A stretch of 64,000 nucleotides of DNA from Candidatus Magasanikiibacteriota bacterium (lineage in GTDB: Bacteria; Patescibacteriota; Patescibacteriia; Magasanikbacterales; 2-02-FULL-50-9b), in contig CAITMK010000014.1 in the NCBI GenBank assembly GCA_903893485.1, positions 66,144 to 130,143 on the forward strand. The letters are read 5' to 3'. The notes below the pieces were generated by a model, which saw only the letters and a list, made by a program, of their open reading frames with translations, did no database searches and had not been told where the DNA came from. The translations under genes and the position numbers were made by a program. Of the stretch, positions 4,834 through 64,000 are shown in pieces; the stretch's first letter is position 1, and each line of letters opens with the position of its first letter.

Positions 4834-5205
4834 ATGTCCATGAACGAAGTTATCCGAATTTCTATTTCCGAAACTGCCCGGCTTTTTGGGCTCAACTCCC
4901 AAACCATCCGCCGTGCCATTAAAACCGGCGAATTGCCAGCAATTGTGGTTCAAGGCCGTTATAAGGTTGATTTTGAAACCGCGCTTAAGTGGTCTCAGAT
5001 CCACAGCACCACCAAAAACAAACTTTCTTCGCGTGGCATTGGTCAATTTGTTAACGAATGGCGTCCAACGATTAAACAAGCCGAACTTCCAACTCCAACG
5101 GAGCCAGAAGCGCCTGAAGAACCAACTGCCGAGGCAAAACCGAAAGCACCTCGCCGCAAATTAGGCCCGCGCACGGACATTTCGCAGCAAGCTCTGCCCT
5201 TCTAA
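4834..5205 (+). CDS. Excisionase-family helix-turn-helix DNA-binding protein
   Basis: N-terminal HTH resembling excisionase/MerR-type HTH_17 (ISETARLFGLNSQTIRRAIKTGELPAIVVQGRYKV). C-terminal Pro/Glu/Lys-rich tail. Divergent from the sigma gene. Confidence 0.6.
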   Translation: MSMNEVIRISISETARLFGLNSQTIRRAIKTGELPAIVVQGRYKVDFETALKWSQIHSTTKNKLSSRGIGQFVNEWRPTIKQAELPTPTEPEAPEEPTAEAKPKAPRRKLGPRTDISQQALPF

Positions 5206-6363: not shown

Positions 6364-6414
6364 AGGGCGTTCTGGTATCAGAACTGCCTATAATAGCAGA
6401 GATTAGCGATTTTG

Positions 6415-12370: not shown

Positions 12371-12547
12371 GAGTGGTTATGCACTTTTTGTGCACAGAAA
12401 ATTCCGTGAAATAAAAAAACACCACACCGCTTGAGCATCCTGGGTAGGATTGCAGCAAGCAATGTGGCGTCACTCAACTCGTTGTGTGAGTGTGACCCTT
12501 TCGGATCATTGCAGAGTCGCCGTTACTGAGGCGCTACTGCGTTGGAA

Positions 12548-14464: not shown

Positions 14465-14708
14465 CTTTGAAATCTCCTGTCAAAAAACACGATCGCTCTT
14501 TCGAGCCTCCCTCCCCACCGCGCACTCGCGCAGTAGGTAATTGTCGGCGCCGGGATAAAACGCCTGACGAATTCATCTCCTTATTGATGTCGTCAGGATT
14601 TTCATCTTTTAAAAAATAGGACCCCGGCAGCAGCAGCGTTCTTGCCACTGCTACCGGGTGAATCATTTCTCGTCTGATTCAGACGTTGCGCGGCTCGTTG
14701 GCCTGCGC

Positions 14709-16398
14709 TTACTTCTTGAACTTGGCGCACCAATCCACGACACCGCCTGGACCAAACATGTCCGGCAAAGCGATGTTGCTCTCGATGTCAAAGTCACCGG
14801 GACCCAGATCCACGAGCGGCACCAAAGCGCCGAGCGGATCTTGTACCGTCATGTACGGACCGCCAATCGCGTAGTGATCCTTGCCCTTGTTGAGCATGGA
14901 ATACGCGGTGCCGCCAAATTCGATCGGCGGAGTACCCTTGGCCGCGCCGACGTCGTACGCGTCACAAAACAGCTGCGCCGAGATCTTCACTTCGGGCGAG
15001 ATGCCCGAGATGTAGTTCGGAGCACCCGCCAGCTTGAAGTAGCCCCAGCTATTCCCGATAGTGGTCAGGATCATAGCATACGGCGCCGGCGCGTACAAGC
15101 CCATGATGTCCGAGCTTTCGCCCGTGCTCATCGTGAAAAACAGCGGCGTCCATTCACAGCCAACCTGCGAGTCGCAGGTGTCCAACGTCCAGTACTTCTG
15201 GTCGTTGCACTTGGCGGTGACCGTTGCGAAGGACCACGGAACAAACTGGCAGCCCAGCAGCGGCAGGCACGAATCGTCGGTGCACTTGTCGCCATCATCG
15301 CACGTCACGACCGTACCCTTGCAGGCAGCGGTCTTGTCGCAGATGTCGCCGTCTGTGCACAGATTGCCGTCCGTGCACGACTTGCCCACAATGGGCAGGT
15401 GCTTGAACACGCCGGTCTGCGGATCACACTTGGCGTCCTCCGTGCATTCGTTGCCGTCGTCCTCGAGCTTGGCCTCCGACAAGCACTTGCGCAGATCCGT
15501 ATCGCACGTCACCTGGATGCACAGATTGCCTTTGAATTGCGGCTGCGCGAGGCAGTCCGCATCCGTGTTGCAATCGTACGCCGGCAAACCTTCACAGGTG
15601 CCGGCCGTGCAAACGTCATTCTCCGTCGCCGGATTCCCGTCGTCGCACTTGCTGCCATCCTTCAGCTCCGCGGTCTGGCAGCCCAGCTTGGCGTCGCAGG
15701 AATCGGTCGTGCACGGGTTGCCGTCGTCGCACTTCAGGGTCGAACCTTTGCATGCGCCGACCGCACAAGTATCCGCTGTCGTGCATACGTTCCCGTCATC
15801 ACACGCCGCCGTGTTGTTCGCGTAGACGCAGCCCTTGGCTTTGTCGCACGAGTCATCGGTGCATGCGTTGCCGTCGTTGCAGGGCAACGTCGCGCCTTCG
15901 CACGAACCCGCCTTGCAGCTGTCGCCGGTGGTGCAGGCATCGCCGTCGTCGCACACGATTGCCGTGGCGATTGGTGACGCGACGCACTTGCCGAGCTTGG
16001 CATCACAGCTGCTGACGACGCACGGGTTGCTATTGTCGCAAACCACGGACACGCCCTTGCAGTAGCCAACGCCATCGCAGGCGTCGCCGGTGGTGCACGC
16101 GAGCTTGTCGTCGCACGCCGTGCCTTCCTTGGGATACGTCGCGCCTTTCGGCCGAACGCATTGCCCGGAAACGCACGTGAACTGGACATCGCATGTGGTC
16201 TTGTTCAGCGGCGCGCAATCCGGATTCGTTTCGCACAGCACGATTTGTGCCACAGAAACGTCCGGCGCGGGCGCCTGAACATCGACCTGAACGCTGCCGG
16301 CGTCCTCGGTGGGCGCGCTACCGCCCGAACCAGCTGCCTGCGTACAGCCCGCGACAATCGCGAACGGCACGCAGAGTTTGATCAAACGCGTGAACATG
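14709..16398 (-). CDS. Secreted lipoprotein with about 12 or more Myxococcota-type cysteine-rich disulfide repeats (C-x-DGN-x-CT-x-D-x-C)
   Basis: Probable start MFTRLIKLCVPFAIVAGC (lipobox VAGC). Repeats such as CDDGDACTTGDSC, CNDGNACTDDSC, CDDGNVCTTADTC, CDDGNPCTTDSC. C-terminal roughly 170 aa is non-repetitive. GC-rich. Confidence 0.8.
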
Positions 16399-16573
16399 AT
16401 AAACCTCCGAAACAAGTTGAGACACTGTTGGCACACAAGAAAAAGAGCCGAGGAGCAACCGCGAGAAATAACCGTGAGGAATCTCCCCGCAGATCAACCC
16501 CCGACGCCAAAGAATTTGGAGAGGGAGCGACATATGAGAGTATCACAATCCCGCAACAATGTCAAGCCTCTAA

Positions 16574-35718: not shown

Positions 35719-36521
35719 TTCTTCAAATTAATTGCTTCGATGCACATGAACAACGGAATTTCCAAACGCGCTTTATTTTCCGCGCCAGCACGTGGACCAC
35801 TTGTTGCAGGACGATGTGATACCCATTCTTCGAGTCGCGTCACTGCAAAACCAGCCTTGCCCAAATGTTTAAAATATAATTGCAATGGACGATGAAACGA
35901 AACCGTTTGCACCGACGGATCGCTGCCCGGATGCATATCAATTTGATTTTTGCGTTCCGTTAAATACGCGTCAACGCGGCGATACTGCACATGTTTTTTT
36001 TCATCCCATTCCCAACTCGAAAATTTTGGCACGCGAAATGTGGGATGATTTAATACAAATAAAATTCTGCCGCCCGGCGCAAGCACGCGTGCTGCCTCGG
36101 CCATAACTGGCGAGACACGTTCGATATTTTGCAACGCCAATACAATTGTCACCACATCAACTGAGTTATCCGGCACAAATGAACAATCGTCCGCGGGCGA
36201 TACATGATATACAATTTCAGGCACAGAATTTTTCTTTGCAATTGCAATTAATTCTGGCGCGATATCTGATGCAATAATCTGCGCACCAGCGGCCGCAAAT
36301 CGGCGCGAAAAATATCCTTGCCCGCATGCTAAATCTAAAATTTTCATTCCTGGTTTTGGCGCGACCAATCGTTCCAAGTTTGGTGCCAATACTTTTTCCT
36401 GAAAGGTATCTGGATTATTTTCTAAAAGTTCATCGTACCAAGGCGCAACCGCACCCCACGATGTCGATTTTTCGTGCGCCGGTTTTTTTACCACTTTGCG
36501 CGGATTAAATGCTGGTCTCAT
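35715..36521 (-). CDS. Class I SAM-dependent methyltransferase
   Basis: Motif [30 protein letters not shown] and downstream Rossmann-fold pattern. Confidence 0.75.
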
Positions 36522-37456
36522 ACGACTTTTTTAAAATACGCAATTGTTTTAACCAAGCCTTCGTCAACCATCACCTTTGGTTCCCATCCCAGCATTTTTT
36601 TAGCAACCGAAATATCTGGCTTGCGACGTTTTGGATCATCACCCGGCAACGCGCGAAATGTAATCGCTGATTTTGAACTCGTCAGCTTCACCACTTTTTC
36701 CGCAAGCTGTTTCATGGTGAATTCATTTGGATTGCCCATATTCACCGGCCCTGTAACGCGCGCCTTTTCCATAAACAACATCATGCCGCGCACCAAATCA
36801 TCAACGTATTGAAAGCTGCGCGTTTGATCGCCCGCACCATAAATGGTAATTGGCGCGCCGCGAAGCGCTTGCACGATAAAATTCGAAACCACGCGACCGT
36901 CATTCACGGCCATGCGTGGGCCATAGGTATTAAAAATTCGCACCACGCGAATCTCAACTTTTTTTTCGCGATGATAATCAAAACATAATGTTTCTGCGGC
37001 GCGTTTGCCTTCATCGTAACATGCGCGAATGCCAATTGGATTTACATTTCCCCAATACGTTTCGCGTTGTGGATGTTCAAGTGGATCACCATAAATTTCT
37101 GACGTGCTTGCCTGCAATACGCGCGCACCAGTTTTTTGTGCCAACTTTAACATGTTATGCATTCCTAAAAAACTCGTTTCAATGGTTGCCACCGGATCTT
37201 TTTGATAATTCACAGGCGACGCCGGACATGCCAAATTATAAATGCGTGTAAATTTTATTTTTGTAACAAATGGTTCACGCACATCGTGTTTAATGAAAGT
37301 AAAATTTTTATTTTTCAAACACGTTACAATATTTTTTTTACTTCCACAAAATAAATTATCAACGCACACGACGGTGTGGCCCGCGGTGAGCAGCGCCTCG
37401 CACAAATGCGAACCGATAAATCCCGCACCACCAGTTACTAAAATTGTTTGTTTCAT
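36518..37456 (-). CDS. UDP-glucuronate decarboxylase (UDP-xylose synthase), NAD-dependent epimerase/dehydratase family
   Basis: [99 protein letters not shown]. Near-collinear with UXS enzymes. Confidence 0.85.
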
Positions 37457-44839: not shown

Positions 44840-47800
44840 TCACTTCTTGGTAGCGTTTATGACTTTTCGAGTATAGTCATAGAAGTTCCTAGTTCCTTTT
44901 TTCAATTTCAGTGGCTTCAAAATAAGCGCTGCGTTTGCTTCCTGAAATTTCGTGATCGCTTTAGCAGTTGCCTGACTAAAACGCGTCGTCTCATTTCCTG
45001 GCGACCCAGGACCAGACTTTGCCACAACAAATCCATTTGTGTTCAAGAATTTTTGCAGCTCTTTTACATCAGCACCTGTTGCACCAATTTTCAGATTACG
45101 CGTAAATACATACGTATTTTTTATTGATTGAGCTTCAGAAACCGCGGTTTTGTCGAGTAACGATTTTACATCAAGCACCGCATTATTCTGCTTTAAATCA
45201 GTAAGTGCAATCGAAATGTCTGGGATTTTATCGTTATCAAGGTCAACTGAAACCAACTTCGCAAGTTTGAGTGTAAAAATTTGCGGAGTAGATTCAACAC
45301 GAATTGTTACCGTACCAGCTGCATAATCGATTGACACAATCGTAATGTGATGCGTTTGATCTGTGTATGTCTGACTCACGGGCGCGATAACCGTAGTCTG
45401 TACGCTCGCCGCGCCAGCTACAACTGCCGGAGGTGCGCCCGCCGCATCAACATGAACTAATGATTGCGTTTCGCCCGCCGCAACAGGGGCTGCAGGAGGA
45501 GGAGTTACTGATTGGACTGGCGGCTGAACTGGCGGAAGAGTCGTCGCTGGTGTTTGTACCGGAGTATCAGAATGTGAATCATTAGAATGCTCAGCCGGAG
45601 TTGGAGTTGGGCTTGGAGTACTAATTGCATTCCCACTGCCCCCACTACTGCTACCGCCGCCACCAACCTGACAAGGATTAGTTGTAACCGTTTGATCTCC
45701 ACTATAAACCGTACCTCCCAAATAAGTTGCGCGAGCACGATAATGATAAAGCGTATTACACTGAAGCCCTGTTAATGTCGTCGAAAACGAATTAGAGGAA
45801 AATCCATCTTCTTTTGTTTCATTTGTAGTCATTCCGTAACTATCCGTTAAACCATAGTCAAAACCGCGAGCCGTTGCGAGCGAATCATCAAGAGGATTGA
45901 AATTACCCACAACAACCACGTAACCATTCCAAACGCCGGGAGAACTCGATGCGGTAACGGTCGCGCTAAGCGAATTCGTAATTACCAGTTGCAGCAAATC
46001 AGTATTAAGGGAATGATGAATGCCTTGCGGCGCATTCACATACGTACCCCAATTAATTGCACGAGTATTATAAGTGCTCTGATATGCATTATGATCCGCA
46101 TCAGTTGGATAATTTTCAGTTTCTGTGTGATACGGATATTGCGTCATCTCGTTAAACGGTAATGGCGCTATCGTATCACCCGTTGGGTTGTGATATGACT
46201 TGTGGAAATCCCATGTTTTGTACAAGAAGTCTCGGGTTGTGCCTGGTGCTTGTACTGGCACATGATATTTGAGTGCTAATTCGTCACCCTGCGTTGCAAT
46301 AACAAATTTGTTATCAACATCCGTCACCAATGGCAACACATCACCATAACGCGTTGCATTTCCCGAAACCGGATTACCACCACCAACTGTTTTTGCGAGG
46401 CGGTCGTACACCGGCTGTGAAATTTGCATAAGCGGATCTTCAGGATCAGCACTTGTTAGTTCTGAAACACCGCGAAAATGCAAATCGGCATAATATGGCG
46501 CAAGGTTTGTTACCGTAACTGCCTGATCAGGACTCGTATCAACCGCCATCCAATTAATTACCCAGCGAAGCAAATTATTTGATGACCAAATACGAATTTC
46601 GTTGTCCTTGATATTCAGGCCAGACAAATCAATAACCTTTGTATCCATGCCATACGTGTTGGAATAGTTACGCGTACTTGTTGCCGTTCCGATACGCGTA
46701 CTATTAAACGGATCGTATTGCGCAGGAACATTCACAAAGACACCGCTTGAGTTTTTGTACTGTAATTTGTCTGAGCCGGTCCCACCACTTTGCGGACCTT
46801 CTTTGCCGCGTTTAATGACTAATTTCAAATGCGCTGGTGTTGATGTTGCATTTGATAATTTAATCGTTACATACGTTGGAATTTCTGTTTTTGAACTATG
46901 CCACGACAAATGATCATCATTTGCAATAAGCGATGTCACATCGATTCCATCTTGGTCTACAACTCTTACTGGCGCAGGAGCAGTCTTACTAATCGTATGA
47001 ATCTGTCGGTTGTTTCGATAATCTGGAAATACATCAACACTCGGATCATGATCAATTACCTGCAGTGCGGCCTGATCATAGTAGTTGACTTCATTCAACT
47101 CGAACGAAGTTTTGACATCATAATATGTTTCATCGCCTATAGTACGAGGTATGAGTTCACCGTGCGGAATTTTTACGTATGATTCAGGATTTGGAAATGC
47201 CATGGCCTTATAAAACGGCGTCGCTTTCCATTGATTTAAGTCACCACCAGAACCAAGCGTCGATGCACTCGAGGCATCAATGATGAAATTATATTTTGAC
47301 CCGTCATATGTCCACACAAACGGACATGAAGATGACAAGCCGTAGAGCATGCTATATTCATCGCTTGTGGTAATATTTCCTTCAGCATTAATTGAACGTA
47401 CACGATAATACCAACGAGAGCCCGATGTATCCTCGAACGTTGCACCAGCGTCCGCAGAGGCCCAGATATCCCCACCCCATGCGCCGATCAGTAATGTGCT
47501 ACCATCAGACGATGCAGCGGTCGACATCCAACATCCACTCAGCGTTGAATGCAATACCCATGTGACACCACCATCAGTTGAGGTATACATATTACCACAA
47601 TCCACACCCACGATAATTTTTTGGCCATCCGCAGAAACTGAAACGGTTTGCCAACCTGAATACCCAGGACCCGATTGCGCGATCCATGTAGCCCCGCCAT
47701 CGGTAGAAATATTTACAGTGTTAATATTCGAACCTACGGTAACCAATACATTTCCAGTTGCATCTGACGAAATAGCTTGCCAGTTTCCATAGCCCGATGC

Positions 47801-50668
47801 ATTGCCTTGCGTTGACCAATCCGTACCACCATTTGAGGTTGTGTAGACATATCCATTGTCCATGGTAGCAGCGACCTTATTTCCAGCAGCATTCATAGCG
47901 ATGCCTGTCCAATACTGTGTACCTGCGTTATCCTGACGCGTCCATACCCACGCACCATCTGTTTTGGTAGCAAGCCATATATAGCCGTAATCAGAGGCCG
48001 CAGCAATTTTTGTGCCATCACTATTCATTGTGATGCCCTGCCATCCAGCCGTACCTGGATCGGTTTGCTGCGTCCATACCCATGAGCCATCAATCAAATC
48101 CCCAGTCCAAATTGAGCTATTTGTTGCAGCAGCTACCACGTGATCGCCAGCGGTATCTTCGGCAACCGCACGCCAACAATTGCTGCCAGGATCATTTTGT
48201 AGTGTCCATGTCCACACACCATCGGTCTTAACACCAAGATACAAACTGTTACACCAATTTGCAGCAATTGCACGGTCACCTGCACCGTCAACTGCTAATC
48301 CATACCACAGCTTTCCGTTTGTATTATTCAGCGCTGGAGTAAGTGCATGCTGAGTTTCCATGTTGCTATCTGCAAGATGGTTTGCGTAATCATCCCAACT
48401 CGCATGCGAGATTGTGTCATACGCAATCATACTTGTTGATGAAGCATCGGTTGTCCACTGAATTGGAAGCAAGCCGCCATTTGCACCAACATTGGTAATC
48501 GTTACCGGACTGAAACTACTATCCGCCTGCGCTAATACCCACGAAGCTCCATCACCATCCTTGTACTGCGTGCCAGTCTTGTCTCCCGATAGCGTACAAT
48601 CCGTACCGCAATGCGCGGATCCAAGATGTTCCCACGCTGATGACAAAAAATTCCAAATCGAAATTGAAACTTGCTTGCCGTCTGGCACCGCACCATGACC
48701 CTGCCAATTAACCGTAAACTTTGGCTGGGTAATTCCCGTAAAATCCGTCGTAAATTTAAATACCTGAGAATCGAAACCGTTATCAATCTGAGAAAGTGCC
48801 GTGGTTAAATACGAACCATCGTGTGCGAGAATTGGATCGAATGAGCCAAACGCACTTCCTGGTTCTTCCGGTGTGGTACTCGCATTTGCGCTTTCATACG
48901 CAGCCACTGCGTTTGAGGTTATATTTGTTGGCGCATACGAAAAATTTAGAATTGCACTACCGTTATTTTCATAATATTCAACTGTAATAGTATGATCGCC
49001 CGCAGATAATGTTTCAACTTGAGTATCTGGACTCCATGGCGCATCACCACGATTTTGCCAACCATCCATTATGAGTGCCCCGTCAAGATACACTTTTGCA
49101 CCGTCATCGCTATCATCCTGAAACAAATAATCACCCGCATCAAAATGCGTCGTCTTACTAAATCGAGCAAGAAAGCCGTCGTTATTAATACCATTGCCCG
49201 GCGAACCATTTGCCCAATTAAATGCAATCACACGAGAGTTTGCGATATATGTCGGTGCAGTGGTTGGAAACTGAGGTCTGCTTGATGCGCCAGTTGGCAC
49301 ATTCCAATATTCAGCCAAATAGGAATCAGAATTCCCCCTCTCAAGTGGCCATAGATACGCAACATATGAATCATCAACGCCGCTAAAATAATAAATTTGA
49401 TCAACAGACGAAAAATATGTTTCCCCATCTAGATAACCGGGTTTTGTAAAATTAAATGCGATATTTGATCCATCAGAGCAGGAAGCAGCGTCGGGCGGCA
49501 TACCCACAACTTGCCCGTTTACATCCGTGGTGCCAAACTCTGTCCACGAACCATTGCAAAGCACTTTTACGTCCGCGCCGGAAATTGGTGTGCTGGTTGA
49601 GCTCAGCAAATTAAATTGCACATGGCCAAGCGCTGGACCGGAATTGTTTGCGTTCCATGTGGCGCCAGCATCGGAAGAGTTATAAAAATCGCCATATCTT
49701 TTCGCCGCAAGCCACATGTCACCATTTGTGTTAACCGCAACCGCGCCCCAATCAGCTGAGCCAGATGCATTATCATGGCTCGACCACGTTGCTCCACCAT
49801 TTTCTGATGTATACACATAACCACTATCGCCGGTCGAGAATCCATCGACAATATATTTATTTCCAGCGGAATTCACCGCAACAGAATTCCAATAGTGTGC
49901 CCCCAGATCAGTCATCGGTGTCCAATTCTGCCCCGCATCAGACGAAAGAAAAACATAGCCATATCCATACTCATCAGCTATCAAATTATTTCCACTCGCA
50001 TCAGATGCGATATTTTCCCAATTATGCGTGGTGTTCGTACCACTATTATTTGTCCAGGTGGCGCCATAATCTAATGAGGTATACACGTATCCATTATTTT
50101 GGTCAGTGGCAAATAATTTATCACCGAGGGCGTTTGAAGCAACTGAATACCAATAATGAATACCTACGGTCTTACGATCAGTCCATGTAGCACCATAGTC
50201 TGTCGAGGTCCATAAATCGCCAAGATTTTCTGACACAATAAGTTTGTCGCCCGCAGCATTTGAGGCGATCATATGTGCATTATGCGATCCTGTTATTGTT
50301 TGTCTTGTCCAGGTAAGGCCCGAGTCCGCGGAGACAAATACATGCCCTGATCCCTGTTCCAAAGCTGCAAAATGTGTGCCATCCCCAGATGATGCAATTG
50401 AAATCCAGCATCGATAACCCGCATTCGTACGTGCGGTCCATGTCGCACCACTATCGGTCGAGGTATAAAGATATCCACACCATGAACCCGCAATTACTTT
50501 AGTTCCGTCTGCTGAAGCCGCAAAGGTATTCCAGCTGTATGCTGCACCCGATGCAAGTACACGAGGGGTGTGCGAAAATAAAAAAACTGTAATTGCGAGC
50601 GCACATACTCCAATTACAGAAACCGCACAGAATAAAATTTTTTGTTTAAGGGTTTGCGGATGGGACAT
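44840..50668 (-). CDS. Giant cell-surface protein (1942 aa): N-terminal anchor, Asp-box (BNR) beta-propeller repeats, PA14-like domain, more Asp-box repeats, FN3-like domain, Pro/Thr-rich linker, C-terminal peptidoglycan-binding (PG_binding_1-like) domain
   Basis: At least 11 Asp-box motifs (YTSTDSGATWT, FVSADSGLTWT, WTSTDYGATWT, YTSLDYGATWT, YTTSNGGTDWS, YTSTDGGVTWV…). PA14-like segment (DAGDYLFQDDSDDGAKVYLDGALIMDGW…GDHTITVEYYENNGSAILNFSY). Linker TPSPTPTPAE…PPVQPPVQSVTPPPAAP. C-terminal LKIGATGADVKELQKFLNTNGF…TRFSQATAKAITKFQEANAL. Confidence 0.85.
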   Translation of the reverse strand: MSHPQTLKQKILFCAVSVIGVCALAITVFLFSHTPRVLASGAAYSWNTFAASADGTKVIAGSWCGYLYTSTDSGATWTARTNAGYRCWISIASSGDGTHFAALEQGSGHVFVSADSGLTWTRQTITGSHNAHMIASNAAGDKLIVSENLGDLWTSTDYGATWTDRKTVGIHYWYSVASNALGDKLFATDQNNGYVYTSLDYGATWTNNSGTNTTHNWENIASDASGNNLIADEYGYGYVFLSSDAGQNWTPMTDLGAHYWNSVAVNSAGNKYIVDGFSTGDSGYVYTSENGGATWSSHDNASGSADWGAVAVNTNGDMWLAAKRYGDFYNSSDAGATWNANNSGPALGHVQFNLLSSTSTPISGADVKVLCNGSWTEFGTTDVNGQVVGMPPDAASCSDGSNIAFNFTKPGYLDGETYFSSVDQIYYFSGVDDSYVAYLWPLERGNSDSYLAEYWNVPTGASSRPQFPTTAPTYIANSRVIAFNWANGSPGNGINNDGFLARFSKTTHFDAGDYLFQDDSDDGAKVYLDGALIMDGWQNRGDAPWSPDTQVETLSAGDHTITVEYYENNGSAILNFSYAPTNITSNAVAAYESANASTTPEEPGSAFGSFDPILAHDGSYLTTALSQIDNGFDSQVFKFTTDFTGITQPKFTVNWQGHGAVPDGKQVSISIWNFLSSAWEHLGSAHCGTDCTLSGDKTGTQYKDGDGASWVLAQADSSFSPVTITNVGANGGLLPIQWTTDASSTSMIAYDTISHASWDDYANHLADSNMETQHALTPALNNTNGKLWYGLAVDGAGDRAIAANWCNSLYLGVKTDGVWTWTLQNDPGSNCWRAVAEDTAGDHVVAAATNSSIWTGDLIDGSWVWTQQTDPGTAGWQGITMNSDGTKIAAASDYGYIWLATKTDGAWVWTRQDNAGTQYWTGIAMNAAGNKVAATMDNGYVYTTSNGGTDWSTQGNASGYGNWQAISSDATGNVLVTVGSNINTVNISTDGGATWIAQSGPGYSGWQTVSVSADGQKIIVGVDCGNMYTSTDGGVTWVLHSTLSGCWMSTAASSDGSTLLIGAWGGDIWASADAGATFEDTSGSRWYYRVRSINAEGNITTSDEYSMLYGLSSSCPFVWTYDGSKYNFIIDASSASTLGSGGDLNQWKATPFYKAMAFPNPESYVKIPHGELIPRTIGDETYYDVKTSFELNEVNYYDQAALQVIDHDPSVDVFPDYRNNRQIHTISKTAPAPVRVVDQDGIDVTSLIANDDHLSWHSSKTEIPTYVTIKLSNATSTPAHLKLVIKRGKEGPQSGGTGSDKLQYKNSSGVFVNVPAQYDPFNSTRIGTATSTRNYSNTYGMDTKVIDLSGLNIKDNEIRIWSSNNLLRWVINWMAVDTSPDQAVTVTNLAPYYADLHFRGVSELTSADPEDPLMQISQPVYDRLAKTVGGGNPVSGNATRYGDVLPLVTDVDNKFVIATQGDELALKYHVPVQAPGTTRDFLYKTWDFHKSYHNPTGDTIAPLPFNEMTQYPYHTETENYPTDADHNAYQSTYNTRAINWGTYVNAPQGIHHSLNTDLLQLVITNSLSATVTASSSPGVWNGYVVVVGNFNPLDDSLATARGFDYGLTDSYGMTTNETKEDGFSSNSFSTTLTGLQCNTLYHYRARATYLGGTVYSGDQTVTTNPCQVGGGGSSSGGSGNAISTPSPTPTPAEHSNDSHSDTPVQTPATTLPPVQPPVQSVTPPPAAPVAAGETQSLVHVDAAGAPPAVVAGAASVQTTVIAPVSQTYTDQTHHITIVSIDYAAGTVTIRVESTPQIFTLKLAKLVSVDLDNDKIPDISIALTDLKQNNAVLDVKSLLDKTAVSEAQSIKNTYVFTRNLKIGATGADVKELQKFLNTNGFVVAKSGPGSPGNETTRFSQATAKAITKFQEANAALILKPLKLKKGTRNFYDYTRKVINATKK

Positions 50669-54271: not shown

Positions 54272-55870
54272 TTGTACCTTAAAAATATGCAGGGATTCAA
54301 TAGAATCTTGGGAAGCGCCACGACACTTTTATTCGTGTTAAGCTTTGCAGGACCCACAACCTTATTCGCCGCAAATCCACCACCACTCGGATATTCGATT
54401 ACCTATGGTATTCTTGCGAACACTTATACCAACACCACACTTGGAACAACAGTGGCTGGCGATATTGGTTACACAACTGCTCCAGCAATTGTGGCGGCTG
54501 GCGTTCACAACAATCTTGGCTCCGAAGCGCCGTATGCTGCGGCTGGAGCAGATCAAGGCACTGCATTAGCAAATTTAAATTCACAACCCTGTACTTTCAC
54601 TTTTGCACCAGGAGCAATTGATCTTTCAACAGATACAACTCACGGAACAATTGCCACATATGGCCCGGGTGTATATTGCAGTACCGGCGCAATGGATGTT
54701 GGCGGCCCTATTTCACTTAACGGCGCTGGCACCTATATTTTTAGACCAAGCGGCGCACTTACTTCAACAACCGGTTCTGTAATTTCATTATCTGGCGCGT
54801 CTGCTTGTAATGTATTTTGGACACCAGGAGGCGCAACATCATTGGCAACAAATACTACTTTTGTTGGTACTGATATTGATGTCGCTGGCATAACCGTTGG
54901 ATCAACTGTAACTTGGGTTGGCCAAGCATTAGCATTTGGAGGAACCATTAGCACTGACGCAGATACCATCAGCGTTCCAAACTGTACAGTTGTACCAAAA
55001 GCACCGATCGTTGGACAAGGTGGAGGTTACACAACACCAACCGCAGCCGTTGTACCACCACTTATTCATATTACAAAAATTCCAGACCCACTTTTATTAA
55101 CCGCTGGACCTGGATTAGTAACATACAATTACACGGTAACCAATGTTGGTCTTGTGCCAATGAGTAATATTACCGTCATCGACAATAAATGCAGCGCGGT
55201 TACCCTGTTATCTGGCGATTCAAATCTTGATTCAAAACTTGATGTTGGAGAAATTTGGAAATATCGTTGTGCCATGACGCTTTCCGAAACAACAACGAAT
55301 ACAGTTACCGCAACGGGGCAAGCAAGCGGTCTAACTGCAACCGATATCGCAGAATCAACGGTTGCTGTGAGCGCACCACTTCCTCCACCACTTATTGACC
55401 TTATCAAAATTCCAGACCCACTGGTACTTCCATCGACTGGTGGTGTAGTAAAATATACCTACACCGTTACCAATCCTGGCGTCACACCACTTAGCAACGT
55501 TTCGGTGGTTGATGATAAATGTATTCCCGTAAGCGGACCAAGTGGTGACACAAACAATAATAATTTGTTAGACATGAACGAGACGTGGACATATACGTGC
55601 AGCTCAGTGTTACACGAAACCACCGCTAACGTCGGCACTGCTACCGGGAGCGCCAATGGTATGTCAGCTCAGCATTCTTCAATTGCGCTCGTTGTTGTAA
55701 ATGCACCCGCACTAACAATAAAAACGCCAACCTCAACAGTTCCAAAATTACCAAACACGGGTGTTAACCAAAACAATAATTTCTTGCAAATTTGTTTTGG
55801 CCTTGTGGGATTATTTGCACTTTTAGCAGCGTTCTTTAAAGGCAAAGAAATTCTTGCATCGCGCCGCTAA
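54272..55870 (+). CDS. LPXTG-anchored surface protein: N-terminal ice-binding-like (DUF3494) domain plus two DUF11/CARDB-like repeats
   Basis: Signal peptide. LGYSITYGILANTYTNTTLGTTVAGDIGYTTAPA… resembles the DUF3494 N-terminus. Two roughly 100-aa repeats (IPDPL…YxYTVTNxG…). C-terminal LPNTG plus hydrophobic stretch plus KGKEILASRR. Confidence 0.75.
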   Translation: MYLKNMQGFNRILGSATTLLFVLSFAGPTTLFAANPPPLGYSITYGILANTYTNTTLGTTVAGDIGYTTAPAIVAAGVHNNLGSEAPYAAAGADQGTALANLNSQPCTFTFAPGAIDLSTDTTHGTIATYGPGVYCSTGAMDVGGPISLNGAGTYIFRPSGALTSTTGSVISLSGASACNVFWTPGGATSLATNTTFVGTDIDVAGITVGSTVTWVGQALAFGGTISTDADTISVPNCTVVPKAPIVGQGGGYTTPTAAVVPPLIHITKIPDPLLLTAGPGLVTYNYTVTNVGLVPMSNITVIDNKCSAVTLLSGDSNLDSKLDVGEIWKYRCAMTLSETTTNTVTATGQASGLTATDIAESTVAVSAPLPPPLIDLIKIPDPLVLPSTGGVVKYTYTVTNPGVTPLSNVSVVDDKCIPVSGPSGDTNNNNLLDMNETWTYTCSSVLHETTANVGTATGSANGMSAQHSSIALVVVNAPALTIKTPTSTVPKLPNTGVNQNNNFLQICFGLVGLFALLAAFFKGKEILASRR

Positions 55871-55882
55871 TCGAAAAACATT

Positions 55883-56479
55883 TTGTCCGCAAAAATTCTA
55901 AAATTTGGAATTCTTGGAGTAATCGTAGTTGGTTCTGTAGGCATGTATTTTCAAAATGCCTATGGCACCTCTTCGTATTCAATCGAATTCGCACCCTCGC
56001 TAGAAAATAATGCTGCCCTACCCGCCATTCATATTGGTGCGCCACAACGAATCCAAATTCCAGAAATTGCGCTTGATGCGGTAATCGAAAGCGTTGCTTT
56101 AACAGCAGACGGATCAATGGACGTACCAAAAGATCCTCTCAATGCCGGCTGGTATTCGCTTGGACCCCGACCAGGAGAAATCGGAAGTGCAGTTATCGAT
56201 GGTCATGTAAACTGGATACACAACAGTGTCGCTGTTTTTACAGATCTTCACAAAATAATATCAGGAGACACCATAATCATATCTGACGATACTGGCGCAC
56301 AAACAAAATTTAGCGTTCGCAAAACAGAACTCTACAACGCCGCAGAAAATGCAGCGGATATTTTTACATCAACAGATAATAAATCTCATTTAAATTTGAT
56401 CACCTGCGACGGAGAATGGGATAAAGTTGCGCGCCAATATAAACAAAGATTTATTGTCTTTGCAGACAAAGTTGATTAA
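55883..56479 (+). CDS. Sortase family transpeptidase
   Basis: N-terminal TM, catalytic His (VIDGHVNW), TLxTC active-site motif (LNLITCDGEWD). 12 nt downstream of the LPXTG gene. Confidence 0.75.
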   Translation: MSAKILKFGILGVIVVGSVGMYFQNAYGTSSYSIEFAPSLENNAALPAIHIGAPQRIQIPEIALDAVIESVALTADGSMDVPKDPLNAGWYSLGPRPGEIGSAVIDGHVNWIHNSVAVFTDLHKIISGDTIIISDDTGAQTKFSVRKTELYNAAENAADIFTSTDNKSHLNLITCDGEWDKVARQYKQRFIVFADKVD

Positions 56480-56487
56480 ATAGCGCG

Positions 56488-56790
56488 TTAAAATGTTTTG
56501 TCTAAAAGCTCAGCAAGTTTCTTTTTGGCGCTAATTGTAAACACAATTTTTTCTTCATCGCTACGCGCAGCCATCACTTGATTTATCTTTTCAAGATCGC
56601 CAGCCTGCATTGCCACGGCTAATTCTTTTGCATTTTCATCGCCTATCGTTTTCACGTATTCGCTCAAGCCAAATAACACAGCCAATTCAAAAGCGCCCAT
56701 GAGATACTTTTCAGTTTCTTCTTCGCTAATTCCCTGCGCTAATAATTTTTCGCGACCTTCCGCCAACTGATGTACAAAAATAGTAAGCAT
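56488..56790 (-). CDS. Hypothetical protein
   Basis: 100-aa helical acidic ORF. Confidence 0.4.
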   Translation of the reverse strand: MLTIFVHQLAEGREKLLAQGISEEETEKYLMGAFELAVLFGLSEYVKTIGDENAKELAVAMQAGDLEKINQVMAARSDEEKIVFTISAKKKLAELLDKTF

Positions 56791-56795
56791 ATAAA

Positions 56796-57164
56796 TTAGG
56801 AAATTCCTTCATCACGTGGCAAGCTCGGAATGTGTGTATTTTTGATACCCCGCACAGCATCACGGATTTTTTCAACGCCGTCTTTTACCGTTGTGATCAA
56901 AAAACCCGACGACATGGCCGCAACAAACCCAACCAAGGCTGCCGCATACGGCGCATCGTAGTAAGCTAAACCACCCGCAATAGCGGGCAAGGCAAGTCCT
57001 TCAACGATATGGTGCATGCCTTTATACATCTGCGCCGCAGTTTCGTTATGAATTAAAAGCTCTCTTTTTTCATCTTCCATTTCTCGATTCATTCTACGCA
57101 TTGGCGATTCGCGATGCAATTCTCGAGGCAATGGTAAGTCTTTTGGCAATGCAAGTTCGGCCAT
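56796..57164 (-). CDS. Hypothetical membrane protein
   Basis: 122 aa, central hydrophobic hairpin (LALPAIAGGLAYYDAPYAAALVGFVAAMSSGFLI). Confidence 0.4.
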   Translation of the reverse strand: MAELALPKDLPLPRELHRESPMRRMNREMEDEKRELLIHNETAAQMYKGMHHIVEGLALPAIAGGLAYYDAPYAAALVGFVAAMSSGFLITTVKDGVEKIRDAVRGIKNTHIPSLPRDEGIS

Positions 57165-59814: not shown

Positions 59815-59944
59815 CAATATTCTCGGGGTTTGGTCAAAAGCCGAGCTCCGAGGATTTATTTTTTTAAGCCACAAAGACCTCTTGCGTAATTAGAAATAAT
59901 TTGATACAATTTGGCGGTAAAATTGAATAGGCGTGGAGAGGTGG

Positions 59945-60034
59945 CCGAGTGGTTTAAGGCAACGGTCTTGAAAACCGTCATAGGTGAAAGCTTATCGAGA
60001 GTTCGAATCTCTCCCTCTCCGCCAGGACAATTTC
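59945..60034 (+). tRNA. tRNA-Ser (TGA)
   Basis: Acceptor GGAGAGG/CCTCTCC, anticodon loop CTTGAAA, long variable arm, T-arm GAGTTCGAATCTC, encoded CCA. 90 nt. Confidence 0.9.
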
Positions 60035-60195
60035 TTATCGAGCGACTCACTTTCTTGGCTAAAATTAGCCAAATAATTGAGCCATCAATGAGGCCTTGTC
60101 CGAGCAATATAAAACGACCCCATTTGGGGTCGTTTTATATTTACAACATCCTAACGCGAGAACGAATACTGTGCACGTTTAGTAATGTACACCGA

Positions 60196-63100
60196 TTACG
60201 CCCCAAGCGTATCCAAAGGCTTCCGTGGTGCTGAACGCAGATGCCGTGCCTGAGCACGAAGCACCTCGAGTTTCAAATTATCATCTGAAATAATATCTCC
60301 TCGAATTGTCGTGAATTTACCAGGCTCGCCCGCAAACTCCTTGCTTGCCATTTTTGCAAACGCCTCCACCATATCTTCGGGAGGTTTGTTACCCTGATTC
60401 AGGTATTTCTTTGAAAGAATAAAAACTCGATGAGTATTCGTACCAAGTTTTTTAAACATTTTCTTTGCTCGCTGAAGATCTTCTTTTGTGTCTATGATAA
60501 CCGCGCCTTCTGGTAATCCAAGCTTTTTTTCGCGAGAATCATCATTTGGCGGACCACTTTCACCCCCTTTCGGTGGGCGTGGCTCTGATGATGGAGTTTC
60601 CATTGCACCACGCGCCCATTCAGGTGTTACCAAAATCGGATCAATCCAGCCCGCGCCCGCGCCATTCAGATTTTTTACAACTGTTGTTGTATCTTCAATC
60701 GCGTGAATAATCGCGCCACCCGGACCATGACCAACACCTGTTGCAAGCGTATCATATCCTGCGGTACCACCACGTCGAAACACCGCTTCTGCAGCAAATT
60801 TAAGTTTACCGGCTTTGTTAATTAAAATATCGTGCAATGGATCTGACTTATCGATGACTAATTCTCCATGCTCATCTAATGGGATATCTACGCCCATAAC
60901 ATGCACCTTGAAGTTGCTTGCAACATCTTTTAGATTGCCGCCTCTTACCGCAGCGCGCAAATCTGCAAATTTATTATCATGCGTTCCGTCCGTATTTTTT
61001 GCACCATGCTTCATCATTTGTTGAAGCATTTTCTTCATAGAAAGCACGGTTTTACCAACACGATGTCTCAATTCAAGCTGCTGCTCCTTACCATCAAATT
61101 TAAACGTTTCATTGTTATGGTAATCGGCTCGAGCTCCTGGCGCATGTCCAAAACGATTTTCCATGTATGCTTTTATGCCCGCGTTATTCAGATGATGTGT
61201 AACAACTGCGTGATCCACAACTGTTTGAACCGCGTCTACTTTTACAATGCCGGCGTGAACAAGCGCTGCGTGCAATGCGCCCACATCATGACCCTGAAAA
61301 ACTTTGGAAAGCGGAAGACCCCAATTGTCAACAAGCATCCCCATCCCCTTATCGTTTGTTATAAACTGAACGTGATCTGGGAGCTGCACATGCGATCCAT
61401 CTGGAAGAGTAATGTTGTGAATTTGAGAAGTTATTTCGCTGCCACCCAAAAATGTTTTCACAATATGTTCTGACCCACTGTGAATCCAGTTTGAAAGAGA
61501 ATTCATTGAGCCACTGAGTCCATCATTATACAAACTACTGCCGGCATTAATCACCGAGCGCATCAGCACACCACCCGCGATACCAATAACAGAGCCGCCA
61601 ACAACTGCCTTTACCGTTTCCCAACGTTTGAAGCTTTTAAATTCATCATCTTGTTTTGCGACAGCTGCGAGTGTACCCTCTTCCATATGTCGCATATCTT
61701 CCGCGAAGATCTCTGCATTACCCGCTTCGGCTTGAATACGTTTTAATTCCGCACGAATTTTATTAAGCGAAAAAAGTTTTGTATTTCTTGCACCTTCTTC
61801 TGCATCAACCGCAAACATATCGATATGATTTGTGCGTTCGATTTTTTCTTTTGCCATGATTTGGCTTATGTTTGTGCGCTGCTCAGGTGTTAGCCGTGCG
61901 CCATTACACGTTTGCAAATATGCAATTACTTCACCGGCCTGCATGATCTCATCTCGATATCCAAGGCTGCGAATTTTTTCGGCGCGGTCACCACCTGCAT
62001 GTTTACCCAGTGCTTCTCGGCGCATTTCAAGACCGCGATCGCGTCTTAATTCTGCTGAACGGCGTGCACCGGCAAAACCACCGCCCATAAGTGCAGCGGC
62101 TGCTACTGGCGCTCCCGCCAACAATGATGAGCCTCTGACGCCCACACCAATACCCATTCTCACAGCAAAATTGGCAAGCGCACTAGTTGCAGCACCCGCA
62201 AAAATAGGACTCGTTAACCGTCCAAGAATTGGAAGCGACTGAATACGGTTTACAACATTATCTACAAACGATTTTGATCCATCAGGAAATCGATTTGCGA
62301 TATCACGTTCCTTTCGACCAAGCTGCACATCAACTGCCATGGTGCCACGAACAAACTTTGCGATAGCTTCTTTATTTTCTGCTCCATGTTCGGCAGCAGC
62401 TTCTTGAATTGAACGCTGAATTTCTGACTTATATTCTTCTGCGTATTTAAAAAGATTTGTTGCGTACAGTGCACCCTGATCATTTGCCGCCACAGGTCCC
62501 TTCGAAAATGTGCGGCCCTTAAGATAAGTTTGCACGATACGTACATCAACTTCTCTGTCGAATTCAGCACGCGTTCGAATCTCTCCTTGTGCGTAGCGCA
62601 TCATAATCGATGCAACTTCTTGGTTGATTTGTTCATTGTTTTCAATTTTTTCGCCTTTTTCGTGTTCTTGAACAAGACCCTGATCGTACGCTTTAAATAC
62701 TTCATCTAAATACTTTTCCGAGTCACCCAAACTTCCAGGCGTAATTACAACATCACTTTTGTGGATCAAGTGCGCTTCAATGGTTGCCATCAAATTACGA
62801 TTCTGAATAATTGCGGATTTTGCTTCCTGAAAAAATTTCTCTCGCTGACCACTTCCACCCGCACGTGCCAAGAACCGCTTAAAAAAACCATTCTTTTTAG
62901 TATCATTCAAATATTCATTCTCTTTTTCTTCAGCAACACGCTGCGCAAGCTGATTCACAAGCGGCGTCACATCATTCACACCCATTTCAAATTTCATGGA
63001 TGGAAGACGAGCGGGGCGTTTTACGTCATCAGTCACCTCGTTCAAGTTTTTTACACGCATGTAATCTTCAAGCGTAAACCGCGGATCCTCTTTATATGAC

Positions 63101-63216
63101 ACATGAAGCGCGTCACGAATTCGCGCTGATAATTCCGCGTCAGTTTCGTCAGATGCAGCATCACGACCATAGGTGGCGTCGGTGATTTCAAATTTTTTGA
63201 AAGGTTCTTTTGGCAT
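60196..63216 (-). CDS. Giant hypothetical protein (1006 aa) with two internal Gly-rich TM regions separating three soluble regions
   Basis: Long uninterrupted ORF. TM/Gly-zipper segments (ILGRLTSPIFAGAATSALANFAVRMGIGVGV…AGAPVAAAALMGGGFAG and AVVGGSVIGIAGGVLM). No recognisable catalytic motif. Confidence 0.7.
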   Translation of the reverse strand: MPKEPFKKFEITDATYGRDAASDETDAELSARIRDALHVSYKEDPRFTLEDYMRVKNLNEVTDDVKRPARLPSMKFEMGVNDVTPLVNQLAQRVAEEKENEYLNDTKKNGFFKRFLARAGGSGQREKFFQEAKSAIIQNRNLMATIEAHLIHKSDVVITPGSLGDSEKYLDEVFKAYDQGLVQEHEKGEKIENNEQINQEVASIMMRYAQGEIRTRAEFDREVDVRIVQTYLKGRTFSKGPVAANDQGALYATNLFKYAEEYKSEIQRSIQEAAAEHGAENKEAIAKFVRGTMAVDVQLGRKERDIANRFPDGSKSFVDNVVNRIQSLPILGRLTSPIFAGAATSALANFAVRMGIGVGVRGSSLLAGAPVAAAALMGGGFAGARRSAELRRDRGLEMRREALGKHAGGDRAEKIRSLGYRDEIMQAGEVIAYLQTCNGARLTPEQRTNISQIMAKEKIERTNHIDMFAVDAEEGARNTKLFSLNKIRAELKRIQAEAGNAEIFAEDMRHMEEGTLAAVAKQDDEFKSFKRWETVKAVVGGSVIGIAGGVLMRSVINAGSSLYNDGLSGSMNSLSNWIHSGSEHIVKTFLGGSEITSQIHNITLPDGSHVQLPDHVQFITNDKGMGMLVDNWGLPLSKVFQGHDVGALHAALVHAGIVKVDAVQTVVDHAVVTHHLNNAGIKAYMENRFGHAPGARADYHNNETFKFDGKEQQLELRHRVGKTVLSMKKMLQQMMKHGAKNTDGTHDNKFADLRAAVRGGNLKDVASNFKVHVMGVDIPLDEHGELVIDKSDPLHDILINKAGKLKFAAEAVFRRGGTAGYDTLATGVGHGPGGAIIHAIEDTTTVVKNLNGAGAGWIDPILVTPEWARGAMETPSSEPRPPKGGESGPPNDDSREKKLGLPEGAVIIDTKEDLQRAKKMFKKLGTNTHRVFILSKKYLNQGNKPPEDMVEAFAKMASKEFAGEPGKFTTIRGDIISDDNLKLEVLRAQARHLRSAPRKPLDTLGA

Positions 63217-63220
63217 ACTA

Positions 63221-63601
63221 CTAAGCTAAACTTGATAAAAATGTATCCTTGAAATCGAGGAGCGATTGCGCTACCACATCCGAGCTATTCAATACAGCGC
63301 CCTGCAAAAAAAGCGAGATCTGGCTCTCTGGCGCACCCGATGTAGCCAGCTGTTCGAATTCTGCCAATCTTTCGTCCGACAACTTTGCGAGCAAGTCAAG
63401 AAAAATTTGATGTTGAACGCGACCAAACAATTCCGTGATCATTGAAGTGCGCAGCTCAGCATTTGTCGGCTGAATCCCAGCTTCGATAAGCAAGCGTTCG
63501 AGATACAAACGCACATCGTCTGGAATGAGAACGCCATTTTCATCTGTCATGGCAGTAACTGTCATAGGTAAAGAAAATAAATTGTATGTAGTATACACCA
63601 A
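63221..63601 (-). CDS. Hypothetical small acidic protein, immediately upstream (4-nt gap) of the giant gene
   Basis: 126-aa ORF, or about 110 aa from MTVTAMTDENG. Helical and acidic. No domain recognised. Confidence 0.45.
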   Translation of the reverse strand: MVYTTYNLFSLPMTVTAMTDENGVLIPDDVRLYLERLLIEAGIQPTNAELRTSMITELFGRVQHQIFLDLLAKLSDERLAEFEQLATSGAPESQISLFLQGAVLNSSDVVAQSLLDFKDTFLSSLA

Positions 63602-63656
63602 AAATCAAAAATCTCAAAAAGAATCCACTTATTTTTTTGATAATTCTTTAACCATT

Positions 63657-64000
63657 CTACAAACGCTCAGTGTAATTACGAATTGCCCCCATAAAAAGTT
63701 CCCCAAATTGAGAAAGCTTTAAATTACCAACGCCATTAATTTGCAAAAAAGCAGCCGGCGTTTGCGGCAATTGCGCAGCCATCTCCTGAAGCGCTTTGTC
63801 GCCAAACACAATATATGGTGGAACGCCAAGTCGTGAAGCTTCGCTCGTTCGAATAGCACGAAGTTCCTCAAACAACATCTTATCAAAAGCAACAGCCCCC
63901 ACCGAAGCAGCTATTTTTTTTGCTTTTGAAATCACTTTAATTTCAAGTGGTGCATGCGGCGCGCACACATCACAATTTCCACAATTCACCACATCCGAAT
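63657..64000 (-). CDS. recQ: ATP-dependent DNA helicase RecQ, C-terminal part (gene continues beyond window end)
   Basis: Zn-binding CGNCDVC followed by an HRDC-like domain (LFEELRAIRTSEASRLGVPPYIVFGDKALQEMA…INGVGNLKLSQFGELFMGAIR). The frame is open to the window edge. Confidence 0.7.
   Translation of the reverse strand, partial: SDVVNCGNCDVCAPHAPLEIKVISKAKKIAASVGAVAFDKMLFEELRAIRTSEASRLGVPPYIVFGDKALQEMAAQLPQTPAAFLQINGVGNLKLSQFGELFMGAIRNYTERL

Follow-up and report, generated by a model that had tools for sequence, protein, structure and literature searches.

Glycine-zipper helices occur in oligomeric channels and toxins (MscS/MscL, VacA). Enzymes of the GT-A fold require nucleotide sugars and PP2C acts on phosphoproteins; both are normally cytoplasmic. 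Substrates of secretion systems of types III and IV (T3SS, T4SS) that contain transmembrane domains possess moderately hydrophobic helices, and chaperones bind to those segments (PMC6110835). In Patescibacteria, pilin arrays and chromosomal, relaxase-less T4SS are widespread (PMC12102498). Here we report on a pair of adjacent genes from Candidatus Magasanikiibacteriota bacterium, located in a stretch of 64,000 nucleotides of contig CAITMK010000014.1 (positions 66,144 to 130,143), which is called the window in the following and whose own numbering is used throughout. The pair encodes a protein of 1006 amino acids (aa) and a small acidic partner and lies beside recQ. A sequence-only reading of this DNA had regarded it as a candidate for an uncharacterised system.

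With the T3SS/T4SS transmembrane-domain effectors and their chaperones (e.g. SseF-SscB; PMC6110835) the pair shares a few moderately hydrophobic helices that stay under the usual threshold for membrane targeting, a small acidic partner encoded next door and the absence of a signal peptide. However, there is no sequence or fold similarity, the locus contains no secretion system and its location in the core genome is conserved; this is an analogy of design only. What recalls glycine-zipper channels and toxins is a Gly/Ala-rich helix whose GxxxGxxxG motif is conserved; the resemblance exists at the motif level only, without homology, and is not read as a pore. The long helices and the hydrophobic hairpin gave a weak Foldseek alignment to the alpha-pore-forming toxins AhlB/SmhB (ClyA family), but with an E of 0.4-1.7, a probability of about 0.1 and a root mean square deviation above 22 Å this alignment was not significant. 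We regard the effector-chaperone, zipper-channel and alpha-pore likenesses as analogies of design and not as membership. The pair could be placed in no known kind of system, and it is in this limited sense, not as a demonstrated mechanism, that we call it novel.

Results and Discussion

The gene pair and its conservation

The two genes form a conserved, vertically inherited module. Where the organism is named it was found only in Patescibacteria, and its core has no detectable characterised relative. In the window the pair is arranged as follows.

60196 to 63216, minus strand: big gene, 1006 aa, ATG start, taken from the list of open reading frames (ORFs)
63221 to 63550, minus strand: small acidic partner gene, divergent DUF5663, 109 aa from the ATG at 63550
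63221 to 63601, minus strand: longest ORF of the small gene, 126 aa only if the TTG at 63601 is the start
63217 to 63220, minus strand: spacer of 4 nt between the small-gene stop TAG and the big-gene ATG, read directly from the sequence

The sequence-only reading had described a 1006-aa protein with a small acidic upstream partner beside recQ, and all of this was recovered. Both ORFs are present, the partner carries a net charge of -10 while the big protein is near neutral, and the ORF at 63657-63992, upstream of the pair, contains an HRDC domain and is the end of a RecQ helicase. On contig L001 of the same strain RecQ is complete at the matching place. The claimed distance of 4 nt was likewise read straight from the sequence, with the stop TAG at 63221-63223, the ATG at 63216 and a junction of ...GCT TAG tagt ATG CCA... 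The partner length of 126 aa stood less well. The ORF exists, but this length needs the TTG start, and public calls for the identical sequence begin at ATG 63550 (109 aa, P0001) or ATG 63565 (114 aa, P0132). The start at 63550 appears more likely than the 126-aa version; the orthologue alignment favours a short N-terminus.

All 20 of the 20 distinct loci that could be evaluated had a DUF5663 gene adjoining the big gene, on its upstream or its downstream side and often with a gap of less than 25 nt or an overlap. A genome scan, limited by its search pattern, gave nine matches, each from a separate assembly. At the nine genome loci obtained from the family-alignment scan a gene of 100-121 aa lay directly beside the big gene (8 upstream, 1 downstream). 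Five distant members were looked up and again had a small gene next to each; four of these carried precomputed DUF5663 matches and the fifth (P0014) was found with a hidden Markov model (HMM) of the partners. For P0113 (loci L016/L017) the partner is found on the downstream side, and the two genes overlap by 11 nt. After addition of twelve metagenome loci and collapse of near-identical ones, 21 distinct locus groups were obtained. Twenty of them have one adjacent DUF5663 gene, and in the remaining locus (L020) the sequence breaks off within the big gene, on the side that bears the partner in its nearest relatives. No locus contained a second DUF5663 copy, and among the 129 representatives of the big-protein family described below there was no Rosetta-stone fusion of DUF5663 with the big protein. 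DUF5663 is the sole neighbour conserved across all loci.

Consequently, the suggested partnership of the two genes holds, and the pair was kept together in every related Patescibacteria genome examined. Both genes are genuine, with 129 homologues of the big gene and a syntenic small-gene orthologue at every related locus. The obligate pairing of DUF5663 with a giant protein is a new observation of this analysis.

Additional small ORFs were seen at some loci. In Buchananbacteria an extra ORF of about 60 aa, coiled-coil-like by eye, lies between DUF5663 and the big gene (L006:3922-4104, L007:2999-3184), and in a Magasanikbacteria locus with downstream DUF5663 an 80-aa ORF directly precedes the big gene (L009:1440-1682). 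These ORFs may represent a third component in those lineages.

Assignment of the small partner

The small protein was compared with the Pfam family DUF5663 (PF18908). It is similar in length and acidic like the family, and it spans profile positions 1-83 of 84, but with 14.6 bits (E 0.051) it remains below the gathering score of 23.7 bits. The syntenic orthologues align with the window protein, and seven of ten match DUF5663 (best 2.4e-8), which connects it by homology to recognised members. An HMM built from ten aligned syntenic partners, including the window copy, detected partners at five further loci (L012-L017) with E values of 3e-36 to 2e-17. All partners are acidic (net -1 to -12) and about 100-120 aa long. 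The small gene can thus be filed as a divergent DUF5663, placed via its orthologues and not directly through the Pfam threshold.

The sequence-only reading had found nothing assignable. The partner does belong to a catalogued family, but the family itself is uncharacterised: DUF5663/PF18908 is mentioned in no paper of the literature searched, and PDB sequence and profile searches returned no structural relatives.

Family of the big protein

An exhaustive HMMER search of 1.84 billion cluster representatives yielded 129 relatives of the big protein at E<1e-3 and 51 at E<1e-30. The relatives are mostly 1200-2300 aa long, with a median of 1487 aa for the 113 representatives that reach at least 900 aa. 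These 113 were called full-length, and all anatomy counts below refer to them. The window protein is among the shortest members of its family. Named host contigs belong to Candidatus Magasanikbacteria, Candidatus Buchananbacteria and metagenome-assembled genomes of the 'Patescibacteria group', in which NCBI places the Magasanikbacteria, plus two bins labelled Gammaproteobacteria. Family members are publicly named 'hypothetical protein', 'PP2C family phosphatase' or 'glycosyltransferase'. The big gene is therefore a member of an unnamed Patescibacteria family that is annotated only via accessory domains.

The two exceptional bins, titled 'uncultured Gammaproteobacteria bacterium', carry the pair on L005 and L011 (CAYGDX010000001.1, CAYXJO010000004.1), whereas all other named hosts are Patescibacteria. 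One of these copies lies on a 469-kb contig beside gyrB-like and rplK/rplA-like genes, which were identified by eye. Both bins are probably mislabelled.

A word-indexed homologue search gave no match for the big protein. Such searches missed the family because the 90% cluster of the big protein is represented by a truncated copy of 432 aa from contig L001. In this metagenome contig of the same strain codon 433 of the big gene is changed from TAT to TAA, some 40 nt before the contig stops (L001:3850-3942, corresponding to about 61880-61970 of the window), which ends the product. Either the assembly is wrong at its end or the allele is truncated. The strain-level comparison showed 12 differences in total, nearly all in recQ; two were in the big gene, at the contig end.

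Searches of Pfam, NCBIfam, PHROGs and PADLOC returned nothing significant for either protein, and no enzymatic family in them matched the big protein, in agreement with the earlier statement that it has no recognisable enzymatic motif. PDB sequence and profile searches with the big protein and its family also gave nothing. The fold search proposed with the sequence-only reading was carried out with Foldseek on AlphaFold models. The full-length model had no significant match in the PDB (best E 0.019) or in the viral BFVD (best E 0.14), and the model of residues 590-865 had none in the PDB (best E 0.38). The homology searches showed that the big protein is no orphan, but none of its 129 relatives is characterised. 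No characterised family or fold could be found for either gene, and the pair can still be called an uncharacterised system.

Large size, Gly-rich hydrophobic helices, a variable C-terminus and a small adjacent gene are also features of a polymorphic toxin with its immunity protein, or of a phage remnant that encodes a tape-measure protein and its chaperone, and there was one weak PHROG match ('head fiber protein', E 0.0067). However, the small gene is conserved as DUF5663 and in most loci precedes the big gene, which is not followed by any small gene of its own strand (a terminator-like hairpin and a convergent tRNA-Ser gene are found there instead), and known toxin, secretion or PADLOC domains are absent. 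A toxin-immunity pair was rejected on gene order and partner conservation, together with the absence of trafficking and toxin domains, and the immunity role suggested for the partner is unlikely. Since homologues were absent from IMG/VR contigs, GenBank phages and PLSDB plasmids and there was no phage gene among 143 neighbouring proteins, a tape-measure protein or prophage was rejected as well. We consider both explanations very improbable.

Domain organization of the big protein

The family shares a conserved core of about 500 aa (query residues about 68-570). The big protein can be divided into the following regions; model confidence is given as the predicted local distance difference test score (pLDDT).

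63016 to 63216, minus strand: N-terminal leader, residues 1-67, poorly conserved (coverage 0.02-0.10), pLDDT 35-58
62227 to 63015, minus strand: alpha/beta N-domain, residues 68-330, pLDDT 80-92, in 110/113
62062 to 62226, minus strand: Gly/Ala-rich two-helix hydrophobic hairpin, residues 331-385, in 113/113
61624 to 62061, minus strand: very basic helix followed by a helical domain, residues 386-531, pLDDT 84-95, in 112/113
61543 to 61623, minus strand: glycine-zipper helix G541-xxx-G545-xxx-G549, residues 532-558, in 112/113
60667 to 61422, minus strand: beta-rich domain, residues 599-850, model pLDDT 74.9, in 85/113, best Foldseek E 0.38
60199 to 60666, minus strand: Pro-rich linker and C-terminal tail, residues 851-1006, tail ending in a basic stretch

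The window protein contains the N-domain, the Gly/Ala hairpin, the basic helix with its DRGxExRR motif and the GxxxGxxxG helix. Its N-terminal leader has no signal peptide; the N-terminal extensions of the relatives are rich in Glu and Lys. The N-domain carries the motifs AEEK, NxNLxAxIEA, EKGE, YAxNLF and LDIxLGxKxRD. The hairpin begins at a conserved N-P motif, which in the window protein reads S336-P337, and ends at R385. It is followed by the basic helix RRSAELRRDRGLEMRREALG, in which D393, R394, G395, L396, E397, R399, R400 and G404 are invariant in the seven closest sequences; the family mean is 6.1 Lys and Arg per 20 residues after the hairpin. Among the zipper glycines, G545 and G549 are conserved at 0.82 and 0.81. 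The beta-rich domain, which matched no known fold in the Foldseek search of the PDB, is characterised by the motif D(W/Y)H(D/N)N...F(D/E)GKE and by an NxDGxxDxKF loop.

The last approximately 107 residues (900-1006) have a counterpart in none of the 113 relatives. The position of this tail is taken in relatives by GT2-like or PP2C domains. Across the family the final 30 residues are basic, with a mean net charge of +3.5 compared with -0.4 ± 2.8 for 30-residue windows drawn at random from these proteins, and this is independent of the type of C-terminal domain (129 representatives; residues 977-1006 in the window protein).

Enzyme domains in relatives

A Pfam scan of 30 family members identified PP2C in four and GT2 models in three. 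By an iterative search inside the family a homologous GT2-like domain of about 320 aa was found at the C-terminus of 32 of the 129 relatives; PP2C is present in 4 of the 129. The DAD, ED and RR motifs of the GT2-like domain are invariant. Fourteen members were scanned against Pfam, and PF13632 was matched in ten and PF13641 in six (best 9.8e-7), mostly under the gathering score. Two of the proteins bearing this domain are named 'glycosyltransferase' by NCBI, and a sequence and profile search of the PDB with the domain gave nothing. The DAD and ED motifs of this C-terminal domain, which about a quarter of the relatives possess, resemble those of GT2 glycosyltransferases of the GT-A fold (PF13632/PF13641/PF00535). 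In contrast to characterised GT2 architectures, the relatives append the domain to a non-enzymatic body of about 1000 aa, and the window protein is devoid of it.

Hydrophobic helices and topology

A multi-transmembrane protein with two Gly-zipper transmembrane segments had been proposed. Two hydrophobic blocks are indeed present, a hairpin (about residues 334-384) and a single helix (about 536-556) that carries the one GxxxGxxxG motif, but the first block is a two-helix hairpin and the hydrophobicity is marginal. Membrane insertion was scored for the best 19-mers with an additive Hessa-type scale that ignores position effects, so that the scores are indicative only. The window protein gave +4.1 and +4.3 and the family medians were +3.4 and +4.9, compared with -1.2 to +2.3 for control membrane anchors in neighbouring genes of the window. 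Translocon insertion would be expected at an energy of about 0 or below, which the helices of the window protein did not reach, and none of about 120 relatives fell below 0.

No hydrophobic segment separates the zipper helix from the enzyme domain in the glycosyltransferase- and PP2C-bearing members examined. Because the enzyme domains follow the zipper helix in this manner, the C-terminal half including the supposed ectodomain lies most simply in a cytoplasm. For the same reason, namely that cytoplasmic-type domains follow the last hydrophobic helix of relatives without a further hydrophobic segment, the three regions probably do not alternate across the membrane. The earlier picture of three soluble regions split by transmembrane segments is thus doubtful, as the helices are marginal and the GT2-like and PP2C domains of relatives would come to lie on the far side.

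These data bear on the membrane-spanning receptor or envelope scaffold as first drawn. According to this explanation the hairpin and the third helix would cross the membrane, residues 560-1006 would form a surface ectodomain for sensing or binding outside, the N-domain and the loop would stay inside, and DUF5663 would serve as a cytoplasmic signalling partner. A positive-inside pattern speaks for it (6.1 Lys and Arg behind the hairpin, with 4.9 preceding and 1.7 following the third helix), as do the beta-rich, less conserved C-terminal domain with its NxDGxxD loop, the glycine zipper, which is generally considered typical of oligomeric membrane helices, and the neighbouring genes for a sortase and a surface protein of the LPXTG type (LPNTG). 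However, the GT2-like (32) and PP2C (4) domains beyond the ectodomain, reached without an extra hydrophobic segment, would place enzymes that depend on nucleotide sugars or phosphoproteins outside the cell, and not one of about 120 relatives has a helix of predicted favourable insertion. A multi-transmembrane topology with an ectodomain is therefore doubtful and the less likely reading of the topology, and we judge the spanning receptor as a whole to be improbable.

Proposed role as a cytoplasmic-face scaffold

We tentatively favour a hairpin-anchored scaffold at the cytoplasmic face of the membrane that is tied to the synthesis or regulation of envelope glycans, with DUF5663 as its obligate subunit. 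The sequence-only reading had left open a membrane-inserting toxin or an envelope scaffold; both are still in play, and the scaffold is ranked first. The pair with its conservation, the arrangement of domains, the low hydrophobicity and the domains fused in relatives are observed; that the protein associates with the membrane, on which side it lies, that it forms a complex with DUF5663 and that it is linked to glycans are inferred. The giant protein would lie wholly on the cytoplasmic side, where the Gly/Ala hairpin and the glycine-zipper helix would hold it at the membrane or dipped into it, possibly as an oligomer. The conserved N-domain and the basic helical domain would constitute a platform. 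In relatives this platform would bear its own C-terminal catalytic module, GT2-like in about a quarter and PP2C in a few, and would make or regulate cell-envelope glycans; the window copy would be a minimal, non-catalytic form. The acidic surface of DUF5663 could plausibly dock on the basic helix beside the hairpin.

In favour of the scaffold, an acidic partner (net -1 to -12) faces a basic helix (6.1 Lys and Arg per 20 residues), a signal peptide is absent and the helices stay below normal anchor hydrophobicity throughout the family. The constant layout of the family, the DUF5663 gene at all evaluable loci, the compartment shared by the C-terminal half and the enzyme domains, the housekeeping flanks, the distribution of the nine matches over separate assemblies and the absence of phage or plasmid copies also speak for it. 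The link to envelope glycans is proposed because the fusion to a GT2-like domain looks ancestral, because PP2C fusions exist and because Wzz and glycosyltransferase genes occasionally neighbour the pair.

Several observations weigh against the scaffold. The window protein has neither a GT-A domain with a DxD motif nor a PP2C domain, and the profile of the GT2-like domain of the relatives detected no separate copy elsewhere in the window. PDB and Foldseek searches yielded no homology or fold match that points to a specific function. Glycan genes adjoin the pair in a minority of loci and may owe this to shared ancestry. The asymmetry of Lys and Arg around the zipper helix, 4.9 on its near side and 1.7 beyond it, would suit a helix that truly spans the membrane and leaves the C-terminus outside, and the NxDGxxD loop of the beta-rich domain is similar to calcium-binding loops, a frequent element of extracellular domains. 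Finally, exported membrane-inserting effectors likewise have marginal hydrophobicity combined with a small acidic partner as their signature (PMC6110835). There is also an appreciable chance that the function lies outside all readings considered here.

Genomic context

The pair is flanked by housekeeping genes, namely recQ, thrS, rplA, smpB and infC; gyrB and secE/nusG were recognised at some loci by eye from translations. No housekeeping gene common to the window and the closest loci was found for calibration of the divergence. Among 143 neighbouring proteins from 19 locus groups, VirB2-like T4SS pilins recurred with nine proteins, all in three Buchananbacteria groups, and Wzz chain-length determinants occurred near the pair in four to five groups. 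Three looked-up loci had GT2 or GT1 genes that stand alone and a gene resembling rmlC (dTDP_sugar_isom). In detail, between two and five genes for VirB2-like 'T4SS_pilin' proteins (PF18895) form arrays next to the pair, accompanied by a gene for a solute-binding lipoprotein, at L006:10106-12740, L007:265-1227, L008:80-1095 and L027:716-3095.

This context has to be considered for the possibility that the big protein is an exported membrane-inserting effector or translocator. DUF5663 would then be a chaperone that shields the hydrophobic helices, export would perhaps proceed through the chromosomal, relaxase-less T4SS of Patescibacteria, and the protein would insert into the membrane of a host cell; in relatives the GT2-like or PP2C domains would be delivered into the host cytoplasm. 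By analogy to known effector-chaperone pairs (PMC6110835), the moderately hydrophobic helices, which are systematically just under normal anchor hydrophobicity, and the adjacent, closely coupled small acidic gene would suit such a role. The missing signal peptide, the catalytic modules differing among relatives at the C-terminus and the basic last 30 residues (+3.5 versus -0.4 ± 2.8) agree with it too, although basic C-termini are common in many proteins. The pilin arrays would supply a link to secretion, but this association is restricted to 3 of 21 locus groups, and a crude check found no VirB4-like ORF with a Walker-A motif among the large ORFs of the 64-kb window. The likeness to the pore-forming toxins AhlB/SmhB mentioned above points the same way at a probability of about 0.1, which is not significant. 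Furthermore, the housekeeping neighbourhoods, the presence of each match in a separate assembly and the well-conserved core are unlike typical effector repertoires. Taken as an analogy, the effector, though unlikely, is the main rival of the cytoplasmic-face scaffold.

Further features of the window

Two further elements adjoin the pair.

60111 to 60136, no strand assigned: perfect 11-bp hairpin AAAACGACCCC-aaat-GGGGTCGTTTT with A-tract/T-tract, between the big gene and the convergent tRNA-Ser gene, from reading of the sequence
63590 to 63617, minus strand: promoter-like site TTGAGA-16 nt-TATACT in the spacer between recQ and the small gene, weak, 10/12 consensus matches

The tRNA-Ser(TGA) gene occupies 59935-60024 and is convergent with the big gene on its downstream side. 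The hairpin is likely a two-way terminator; a scan for consensus terminators did not report it. Promoter-like sites were no more frequent in the region than in shuffled sequence (9 observed, 7.3 expected by chance). With these elements the two genes look like a self-contained bicistronic unit.

At 56488-57164 on the minus strand there is a tight pair in which a 122-aa protein with a hydrophobic helix is followed after 5 nt by an acidic protein of 100 aa, both without Pfam matches. As a second DUF5663-like pair it was rejected, the acidic protein being unrelated (hhalign probability 1.5%). Next to it, at 54272-56479, a 532-aa surface protein (Ice_binding-like, DUF11, DUF7507, LPNTG, C-terminal anchor) has a sortase gene directly behind it, an arrangement classic for surface anchoring in monoderms. 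A second giant protein of 1942 aa (44840-50668) contains PA14, BNR/Sortilin-like and peptidoglycan-binding domains and is probably extracellular.

At 12542-14470 and 14658-16436 very long ORFs (about 640 aa; 440-575 aa) overlap nearly completely in pairs on opposite strands. The minus-strand products start like lipoproteins or secreted proteins, and the antisense ORFs are probably an artefact of composition. The ranges 5161-9996 and 36518-37456 contain a cluster of ORFs resembling glycosyltransferases, together with a multi-pass membrane ORF and one that resembles UDP-sugar epimerases/decarboxylases, with GxxGxxG at its N-terminus. These ORFs were judged by eye from translations only and are 50 kb away from the pair.

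Conclusion

Patescibacteria constitute a large share of bacterial diversity, and for most of the proteins conserved in them no function is known. To a specialist one more dark Patescibacteria family will be unsurprising, yet this one is well defined. Two 'hypothetical' genes become a defined and testable module with strict co-inheritance, sub-threshold helices and lineage-specific glycosyltransferase or phosphatase modules. Whether as an envelope-glycan platform or as a host-directed effector, the pair provides the first functional context for DUF5663. If the effector were true, it would be a core molecular tool of the epibiotic lifestyle, specific to Patescibacteria. In either case, work on those few Patescibacteria that are genetically tractable or kept in co-culture gains a concrete target.

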